Source of the DNA: a virus
Lineage: Duplodnaviria; Heunggongvirae; Uroviricota; Caudoviricetes
Direction: 5' to 3' (one strand)
IMG/VR virus record: IMGVR_UViG_2654587571_000011
Length of the DNA stretch: 5,360 nucleotides
Program-made: the position numbers and the translations under genes
Part shown: piece after piece, positions 566 to 617 of the stretch
Numbering within the stretch: the stretch's first letter is position 1
How the letters are laid out: every line of letters starts with the position of its first letter
Notes under the pieces: generated by a model
What the model was told of the DNA's origin: nothing
The model's database searches: none
What the model saw: the letters and a program-made list of their open reading frames with translations, nothing else

Positions 566-617
566 GTTGTTGGGGATAACCAGATTAACCGAATCCTTGT
601 TGTTGGGGAATAACCAG
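566..617. repeat. Two direct copies of an 18/19-bp motif (GTTGTTGGGGATAACCAG at 566-583, GTTGTTGGGGAATAACCAG at 599-617) separated by 15 bp; putative operator or regulator-binding sites
   Basis: Direct reading of the sequence; copies differ by a single inserted A. They sit 16-67 bp upstream of the 144-aa gene start, in the divergent intergenic region facing xis. Confidence 0.6.

Follow-up and report, generated by a model that had tools for sequence, protein, structure and literature searches.

A repeat pair upstream of an ECs1072-family prophage gene as a probable version of the P22 sieB promoter and sas antisense RNA cassette

Two nearly identical direct repeats lie shortly upstream of the start codon of a 144-aa gene in an e14-like prophage, and the locus raises the question of what reads them. 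The sequence-only reading regarded the pair as operator or iteron-like sites for a DNA-binding protein in a divergent control region, and as a possible switch for the 144-aa gene and/or for transcription toward xis-int. To answer the question, the repeats, their homologues in other phages, and the promoter and RNA structures predicted around them were analysed in the window, which here means the whole stretch of 5,360 nt.

The repeat pair and its prophage setting

Positions 1-5297 of the window matched the E. coli chromosome NZ_CP180607 at 100%, and the window covers the end of an e14-like prophage, integrated at icd, that carries the integrase gene. The features of the window are collected in Table 1. 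In the genome of the window, an IS3 element sits between the immunity region and the repeat module. The 144-aa protein, a member of the ECs1072 family, gave no match to a Pfam family.

Table 1. Features of the window and of the repeat module (window coordinates)
Feature	Position	Strand	Remarks
IS3 end	1-108
ECs1072-family phage-associated protein gene	116-550	minus	144 aa; cargo gene; NCBIfam NF033230, 157.8 bits; phrog_5286
Predicted sas-like antisense RNA gene	545-665	+	extent inferred from P22 sas RNA; match to model R1
Repeat copy 1, GTTGTTGGGGATAACCAG	566-583	+	on the minus strand, its first 11 nt are the 5' end of the predicted cargo mRNA (...UCCCCAACAAC)
Predicted mRNA start of the 144-aa gene	575-577	minus	inferred from the register with the P22 sieB RNA start
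Predicted -10 hexamer, TAATCT	587-582	minus	register of P22 TAAACT
Hairpin HP2, CCU.GUUGUU [GGGG] AAUAAC.AGG	595-618	+	-7.2 kcal/mol folded alone
Repeat copy 2, GTTGTTGGGGAATAACCAG	599-617	+	5' arm, GGGG tetraloop and 3' arm of HP2; on the minus strand, overlaps the predicted -35
Predicted -35 region, TATTCC	607-612	minus	equivalent of P22 TGTACC; poor consensus match
Third element HP3, CCACC-UC-GCCUG-A-UGUGG-CUAAAAG-CAGGC	620-649	+	block with the highest conservation in the module; makes up the 3' body of the predicted RNA
STnc100-like sRNA match	661-884	+	31.8 bits, below the Rfam gathering score of 47
xisE	1044-1289
intE	1267-2397
309-aa membrane protein gene	2611-3540	minus	cargo gene
HEPN/Toprim-associated protein gene	3922-5259	+	445 aa; cargo gene
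Second IS3 end	5296-5360

At either end of the window lies the left end of IS3, the two copies inverted relative to each other. They form a perfect 64-nt inverted repeat (36-99 and 5297-5360), and the left one includes the start of orfA. NZ_CP180607, the best-matching genome, has the left IS3 only, and its right side runs on to icd. Either the 5.2-kb segment is bracketed at its source locus by two inverted IS3 copies, or its ends result from contig assembly. The interval between intE and icd holds lit, ymfD and ymfE in the e14 of K-12, and DUF2357 together with a large hypothetical protein in H22; it looks like a variable cargo or defence hot spot beside the integrase.

Several observations were made on the side of the module that faces xis. 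The STnc100-like sRNA is notable above all at about 818-836, and its 3' part was homologous to the Rac sRNA KilS. A 14-nt block of the STnc100-like sRNA, TGCTGTGTGTAGTC, recurs without change in RprA, a core-genome sRNA, as well as in KilS and one P22-like phage; the prophage may here carry a copy of the seed region of RprA. The interval from the STnc100-like terminator to xis contains an 18-nt inverted repeat (882-899 and 953-970; 94% complementary, 53 nt apart), which falls within a block (833-1001) common to many Stx and lambdoid phages.

The two repeats were present exactly as the sequence-only reading had described them. Each copy consists of an exact 11-mer, GTTGTTGGGGA, and an exact 7-mer, TAACCAG, with one extra A between the two blocks in copy 2. 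The copies start 33 bp apart, copy 1 starts 16 bp from the ATG of the 144-aa open reading frame, and an automated repeat search recovered the pair as two repeat families. When the window was simulated 2000 times with a first-order Markov model, 8% of the simulations contained exact direct copies of 11 nt or more at a distance of 12-60 bp; the gapped pair of 11 and 7 nt appeared in none of the 2000. The full 18-mer, with up to three mismatches allowed, was found in none of 200 shuffles. The core motif, with up to one mismatch, occurred five times in the window versus 1.57 expected and seven times in 18.3 kb of the intact relative versus 5.65 expected; the matches beyond the pair were scattered single sites. 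No further copies of the motif were found at the immunity region, the att regions or the element ends. The likeness of the two copies over 18/19 nt is an extension specific to the lineage of the window; in the relative PhiR49_1, copy 1 reads GGGGATATCCAG.

Distribution of the module and of the genes behind it

Conservation of the repeats was examined in 41 distinct homologous sequences, which were obtained from an IMG/VR pattern scan and from individually found loci. Two YTGTWGGGG cores, 33-35 bp apart, were present in all 41, and the carriers are phages of Escherichia, Salmonella, Klebsiella and Hafnia. The exact core common to both copies was 10-11 nt in most of these sequences. Within the core, GGGG and TGT were invariant, even though the GGGG is unpaired in HP2. 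The base before GGGG was the same in both copies in 37 of the 41 sequences and never mixed A with T, and the base after GGGG was the same in 34. This A/T co-variation between the copies may reflect few evolutionary events or gene conversion.

When positions 440-1060 were compared with E. coli genomes and phages by BLAST, mosaic homology blocks starting at 566, 580, 620 or 833 were obtained, some of which ended at 657. The piece of about 90 bp from 566 to 657 was found alone in other prophages, always upstream of a reverse-oriented gene, at a distance of 16-17 bp, and in front of early-left genes. In O157 and 2012C-4502, the module lies upstream of a reverse-oriented gene for a 171-aa protein and is followed by dicB and an exonuclease gene. 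In PhiR49_1 it lies upstream of a reverse-oriented hypothetical gene, and in the Hafnia phage upstream of a SieB gene. A blastn search with positions 556-665 as the query gave lambda 34394-34464, directly upstream of sieB, as well as P22-like phages, with 75-76% identity over window 582-652; the same arrangement was seen in the Rac prophage of K-12, between sieB and kilR. The lambda/P22/Rac-type versions carry CTGTAGGGGT twice where the window carries its 11-mer twice, at equal spacing.

The position of the module was similar throughout. In H22, O157, lambda, P22, Rac and the Hafnia phage, it lies in the early-left operon, downstream of the immunity region. It is placed immediately upstream of, and divergent from, the lysogen-expressed gene, and its antisense strand points away from the immunity region. 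The genes behind the promoter differ, and they represent at least seven unrelated families among the collected loci: a CxxC protein (phrog_1244; 34 loci), an ECs_2282-type zinc ribbon (8 loci), P22-type SieB (4 loci), lambda/Rac-type SieB (3 loci), ECs1072 (3 loci and one distant member), a BssS-like protein (3 loci) and a 71-aa protein (1 locus). Homology between modules stops about 16 bp before each start codon. The ECs1072-family cargo (NF033230) is unrelated to either type of SieB. Since the cargo of the window is not sieB, its module was assigned to the cassette family and not to the SieB/Esc system.

The carrier phages also have unrelated repressors, namely lambda CI, P22 C2, RacR, the LexA-like YmfK and an XRE-family regulator. 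As both the cargo genes and the repressors are unrelated, both the 144-aa protein and the immunity repressor are excluded as a binder of the repeats common to all loci. Among the loci compared, we found no cognate DNA-binding protein that is encoded nearby and co-inherited with the sites.

The suggested link of the repeats to xis-int was not borne out by these comparisons. The e14 of K-12 has the same xisE-intE, but its homology begins only from window 620; it contains xisE-intE, the STnc100-like region, HP3 and a different HP2-like hairpin, without the repeats. SfV breaks at 620 too. It has the same HP3 and STnc100-like region without the repeats, and yfdP/yfdQ-type genes, not xis-int, follow. 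Conversely, the module beyond the lineage of the window, including the 566-657 piece, adjoins dicB, an exonuclease gene, kilR or ral. Because e14 and SfV lack the repeats while the module occurs elsewhere before other genes, the repeats travel with the promoter cassette of the reverse-oriented gene and not with xis-int.

Promoter, antisense RNA and hairpins predicted at the repeats

The P22 annotation (RefSeq NC_002371) places the sieB promoter at 29690-29720 and the start of the sieB RNA at 29727. The -35 of this promoter, TGTACC, overlaps the distal repeat, and the spacer contains the -10, TAAACT, 17 nt after the distal CCCC. The sieB RNA has as its +1 the A just before CCCCTACAG, and with this A the reverse complement of the proximal repeat begins. 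By homology, the copies in the window would mark the -35 and the start of a promoter with the -10 between them, which agrees with the claim that the repeats belong to the control region of the 144-aa gene. In the register of P22, a weak promoter can be predicted for this gene (Table 1). Its mRNA is predicted to start with ...UCCCCAACAACGCAAAAGGAAAAGAAAUG and to have a 5' untranslated region of about 26-28 nt with an AGGA Shine-Dalgarno sequence. A simple scan of 400-1150 for sigma-70 and terminator consensus sequences detected no promoter.

In P22, the opposite strand of this region yields the antisense RNA sas. Ranade and Poteete reportedly found (Genes Dev, in 1993) that sas blocks the synthesis of SieB and spares the internally initiated Esc, and P22 without sas is said to kill itself through SieB. 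The lambda sieB promoter was identified by homology. According to a review, sas is a 105-nt cis-antisense RNA that switches the translation of sieB (PMC12197685), and a study of 2026 reported P22A-sas as a 127-nt RNA detected by small-RNA-seq (PMC13397905, Table 2). The sequence of P22A-sas given in the latter study runs from opposite the sieB start codon through both repeats to 20 nt past the HP3 block, and its 127 nt align over window 545-665. The homology with the P22 sieB promoter/sas region supports the proposal that the region is part of a regulatory switch. In the literature around tL1/sieB and KilS, we found nothing on the repeats.

Neither P22 nor the window showed a convincing promoter for the antisense RNA. 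By eye, TTCACA-17-TATAGA at 509-537 (+) can be noted as a candidate, which fails the scan criteria; it is located within the 5' end region of the ECs1072 gene and reads from the other strand. An RNA from this candidate would begin a few nucleotides ahead of the start codon's complement, matching in relative position the 5' end of P22 sas. Since the coding sequences of the cargo genes differ, a conserved internal antisense promoter is unlikely, and the RNA may need processing from early-left transcripts. We consider that the small RNA is most likely cut out of the early-left transcript. In E. coli H22 (NZ_CP120563), the intact relative, the cI-like gene is succeeded by an intrinsic terminator and then, at L002 7616-7671, by a strong near-consensus promoter, TTGACA-16-CATAAT, which is flanked by the repeated, operator-like ATGTACCC and reads through the ECs1072 gene in antisense into the module. 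This promoter is likely pL with its operators, convergent with the ECs1072 gene. In the genome of the window, the antisense arm may be inactive, with the IS3 placed between the immunity region and the module.

The plus strand was then considered as RNA. HP2, in which copy 2 provides both arms and the loop, contains a U-C mismatch in the window. In the 41 sequences, 7 of the 11 stem pairs of HP2 had changed on both sides, and 27 distinct versions of the stem were present. Paired cells amounted to 88%, versus 33-47% when the partner was slid by 1-3 columns, and the covariation score was reached by none of 500 shuffles. The pair closing the loop was U-A in 23 sequences and A-U in 18, and it was unbroken in all 41. 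The plus strand was favoured by 56 G-U cells, with 88% of the cells paired compared to 80% on the minus strand.

Helix B of HP3 is GCCUG/CAGGC; it reads GCCCGG/CCGGGC in Rac, GCCCG/CGGGC in L065, and GCCUGA/UCAGGC in L016 and L047. By their geometry, helix A (CCAC/GUGG) and helix B, together with an A-rich third loop, may form an H-type pseudoknot. Helix A never varies, and thus covariation speaks neither for nor against it. The HP3 block is kept in the e14 of K-12 (L008, about 6416-6508) and in SfV (L111, 1443-1541). Both of these lack the GGGG repeats, and HP3 is there preceded by another hairpin, which the SfV record annotates as a putative terminator.

Around copy 1, no hairpin (HP1) in a conserved register was found across phages. 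In folds of single sequences, the GGGG of copy 1 usually pairs with an upstream pyrimidine tract, the complement of the ribosome-binding region of the cargo gene, in a register that varies, so that no consensus can be counted. RNAalifold paired this GGGG with CCACC, a possible pairing in which only one pair covaries and nine exceptions occur.

A covariance model, R1, was built from 15 A-type sequences (lambda/P22/Rac/Hafnia-type), with the lineage of the window excluded. R1 matched window 565-659 (+) over its full length with 70.9 bits (E of about 1e-16); the e14 of K-12 and SfV gave 22-26 bits. A scan of the window against Rfam, with E up to 1, gave no match over 545-660 and only the sub-threshold STnc100. 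The 121-nt sequence of the window folds no better than shuffles (z = +1.0), although HP2 alone forms. The support for the structure is therefore comparative and not thermodynamic.

Several other identities of the repeats were considered and rejected. Int arm-type sites were dismissed, since the motif is absent at the element ends and the repeats are more than 450 bp from any att-proximal sequence. Immunity operators were dismissed, since the motif is not repeated in the immunity region. A DnaA box and sites for IHF, sigma-54 and CsrA (GGA), as well as a boxA/boxB nut site, gave poor matches by eye or were lost in the A-type variants. An antiterminator RNA like HK022 put was set aside once the identification of sas accounted for the element.

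Interpretation and comparison with known systems

We consider it probable that window 545-665 is the version of the P_sieB/sas cassette that belongs to the e14-like prophage, with two overlapping functions on the same DNA. The basis of this assignment is the homology, the conserved architecture, the compensatory changes of HP2 and the variable cargo; from these we infer how the cassette would be expressed and function in the prophage of the window, and what the duplication would contribute. The minus strand would contain a weak sigma-70 promoter of the P22 sieB type, which would express the 144-aa ECs1072-family gene in the lysogen. The plus strand would encode a small antisense RNA homologous to P22 sas, whose 5' part would be complementary to the 5' untranslated region, the ribosome-binding site and the start codon of the cargo mRNA. 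Copy 1 would be the part of this RNA complementary to the very 5' end of the cargo mRNA, copy 2 would fold into HP2 with its GGGG tetraloop, and the HP3 hairpin or pseudoknot would close the RNA. If the analogy with P22 applies, synthesis of the antisense RNA would begin once early-left transcription is turned on, during lytic growth or superinfection. Base pairing with the cargo mRNA would then stop or re-programme its translation, and a gene that benefits the lysogen would thereby be kept from harming the lytic cycle of the phage itself. The apex of HP2 (YUGUW-GGGG-W') shares the sequence of copy 1 and would also be complementary to the first 10 nt or so of the cargo mRNA. First capture of the mRNA 5' end may fall to this apex loop, which is the weakest step of the proposed mechanism. 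The agreement between the copies at the bases flanking GGGG would suit such a capture; it could equally result from few evolutionary events, gene conversion or another reader of the sequence.

Could the repeats nevertheless be operators, with a phage or host repressor or activator binding both copies at about -35 and +1 and thereby governing the promoter behind which the 144-aa gene lies? In all 41 variants the predicted -10 is flanked by the two copies, whose spacing stays at 33-35 bp, and such a geometry is known with some repressors. Furthermore, the invariance of the core, whose GGGG is unpaired in HP2, suggests that the sequence itself is read. However, the same repeats accompany unrelated repressors and precede at least seven kinds of unrelated genes, the core motif is not enriched elsewhere in the prophage, and neither the immunity region nor the att regions carry extra copies. 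The compensatory changes around copy 2, which would be unexplained by a protein site, keep the hairpin and point to RNA, and an RNA across both repeats has been detected in P22 (PMC13397905). The operator or iteron reading, with which the analysis began, is thus considered improbable. The plus-strand structure could also be a cis element of the early-left transcript that serves in processing, 3'-end formation or stability, pausing, termination or antitermination, and in which the repeats are structural and the RNA is not a trans-acting antisense RNA. An intrinsic terminator lies directly 3' of HP3 in the Hafnia phage, L067 and L072, the module is always within the early-left operon downstream of the immunity region, an HP2-like hairpin and HP3 remain in the e14 of K-12 and SfV without the repeats, and the RNA has no dedicated promoter that we could find. 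That a discrete small RNA accumulates in P22 and has been assigned an antisense function on sieB (PMC12197685, PMC13397905), and that copy 1 is by its position complementary to the 5' end of the cargo mRNA, render this explanation rather unlikely; the cis-element and antisense readings are compatible, and processing could be a route to sas.

A plain promoter at the DNA level would leave the hairpin functionless here, and the repeats would be the -35-proximal and start-site sequences of a conserved 'moron' promoter, alike by chance, by an old duplication or by gene conversion. The spacing of the repeats does equal the distance from -35 to +1, the HP2 of the window is imperfect and its fold is not significant, and the IS3 may have severed antisense transcription. 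Nevertheless, compensatory changes spread over 27 stem versions indicate a selection on pairing that a promoter does not need, and most of HP2 and the whole of HP3 are upstream of the -35, where a plain sigma-70 promoter requires nothing. We regard this explanation, too, as having little chance of being correct. The starts of the homology blocks at 566, 580 and 620 and the end at 657 do mark a mosaic boundary, where a chance similarity or a neutral leftover of recombination might be found. A pair that arose in none of the 2000 simulations and is kept at constant spacing in 41 variants from Escherichia, Salmonella, Klebsiella and Hafnia phages is hardly credible as such a leftover.

With the P_sieB/sas assignment, an 'unknown operator' becomes a specific and testable assignment. 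On this analysis, a sieB-type promoter probably drives the 144-aa ECs1072-family gene in the lysogen, and a sas-like antisense RNA probably counteracts it in lytic growth. This suggests grouping the ECs1072 proteins with superinfection-exclusion or other lysogen-expressed accessory genes. We propose only tentatively, and with clear reservations, that P_sieB/sas is a portable self-silencing cassette, in which unrelated lysogen-benefit or anti-phage genes share the same promoter, the same antisense RNA off-switch and recognition by the GGGG apex. The cargo genes for SieB, ECs1072, zinc-ribbon proteins and the BssS-like protein would then all be silenced when early-left transcription starts. Every cargo mRNA would receive an invariant 5' end, N-CCCC-WACAR, which the GGGG apex of HP2 would capture whatever the coding sequence behind it. 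The comparison also shows that what was a curiosity of P22 in 1993 is an RNA module of wide distribution and conserved structure, with many cargo genes and no Rfam family, and its recognition helps to annotate small RNAs and accessory genes of prophages. As a result on the window alone, this is ordinary; the general point on the reuse of the cassette is somewhat more notable.

The arrangement resembles lambda oL/oR and plasmid iterons in having two similar sequences at a fixed spacing in a divergent control region, overlapping a promoter. Unlike in those systems, there are only two copies in the window and no operator-type dyad symmetry. Operator and iteron arrays also differ in that the carriers of this pair share no cognate DNA-binding protein and its conservation follows the rules of RNA pairing. 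The lambda OOP RNA, which is directed against cII, and the P22 sar RNA, directed against ant, are likewise short structured RNAs opposite the 5' or 3' part of a phage gene. OOP and sar act by base pairing and time gene expression between lysogeny and lytic growth. However, they have no sequence relationship to the module, and they possess their own mapped promoters and intrinsic terminators, none of which is evident in the window.

Compared with the P22 sas/sieB promoter, the module of the window differs in several respects. Its regulated gene belongs to the ECs1072 family and is not the SieB/Esc gene; since the cargo is not sieB and has no known Esc-like internal product, the two-product translational switch of P22 is not simply transferable. 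The core is of the T-type (GUUGGGGA) in the window and of the A-type (GUAGGGGU) in lambda and P22, and the two copies are alike over 18/19 nt compared to 10-11 in the lambda/P22 versions. Downstream of the module, the STnc100-like sRNA and xis-int are found where the others have ral, and the IS3 separates the module from the early promoter, unlike in P22. Both modules belong to the early-left operon and stand directly upstream of a reverse-oriented, lysogen-expressed gene. They share the two YTGTWGGGG cores 33-35 bp apart, the GGGG tetraloop of HP2, the register of the predicted -10, and the HP3 block CCACC..GCCUG..GUGG..AAAAG..CAGGC. The identity to the lambda/P22-like versions is about 75% over about 70 nt, and the window scores 70.9 bits against the model built from them. 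What is known in P22 of the promoter, of its transcription start and of sas, including that this RNA exists and what it does, comes from the work of others, and the window adds a different cargo gene.
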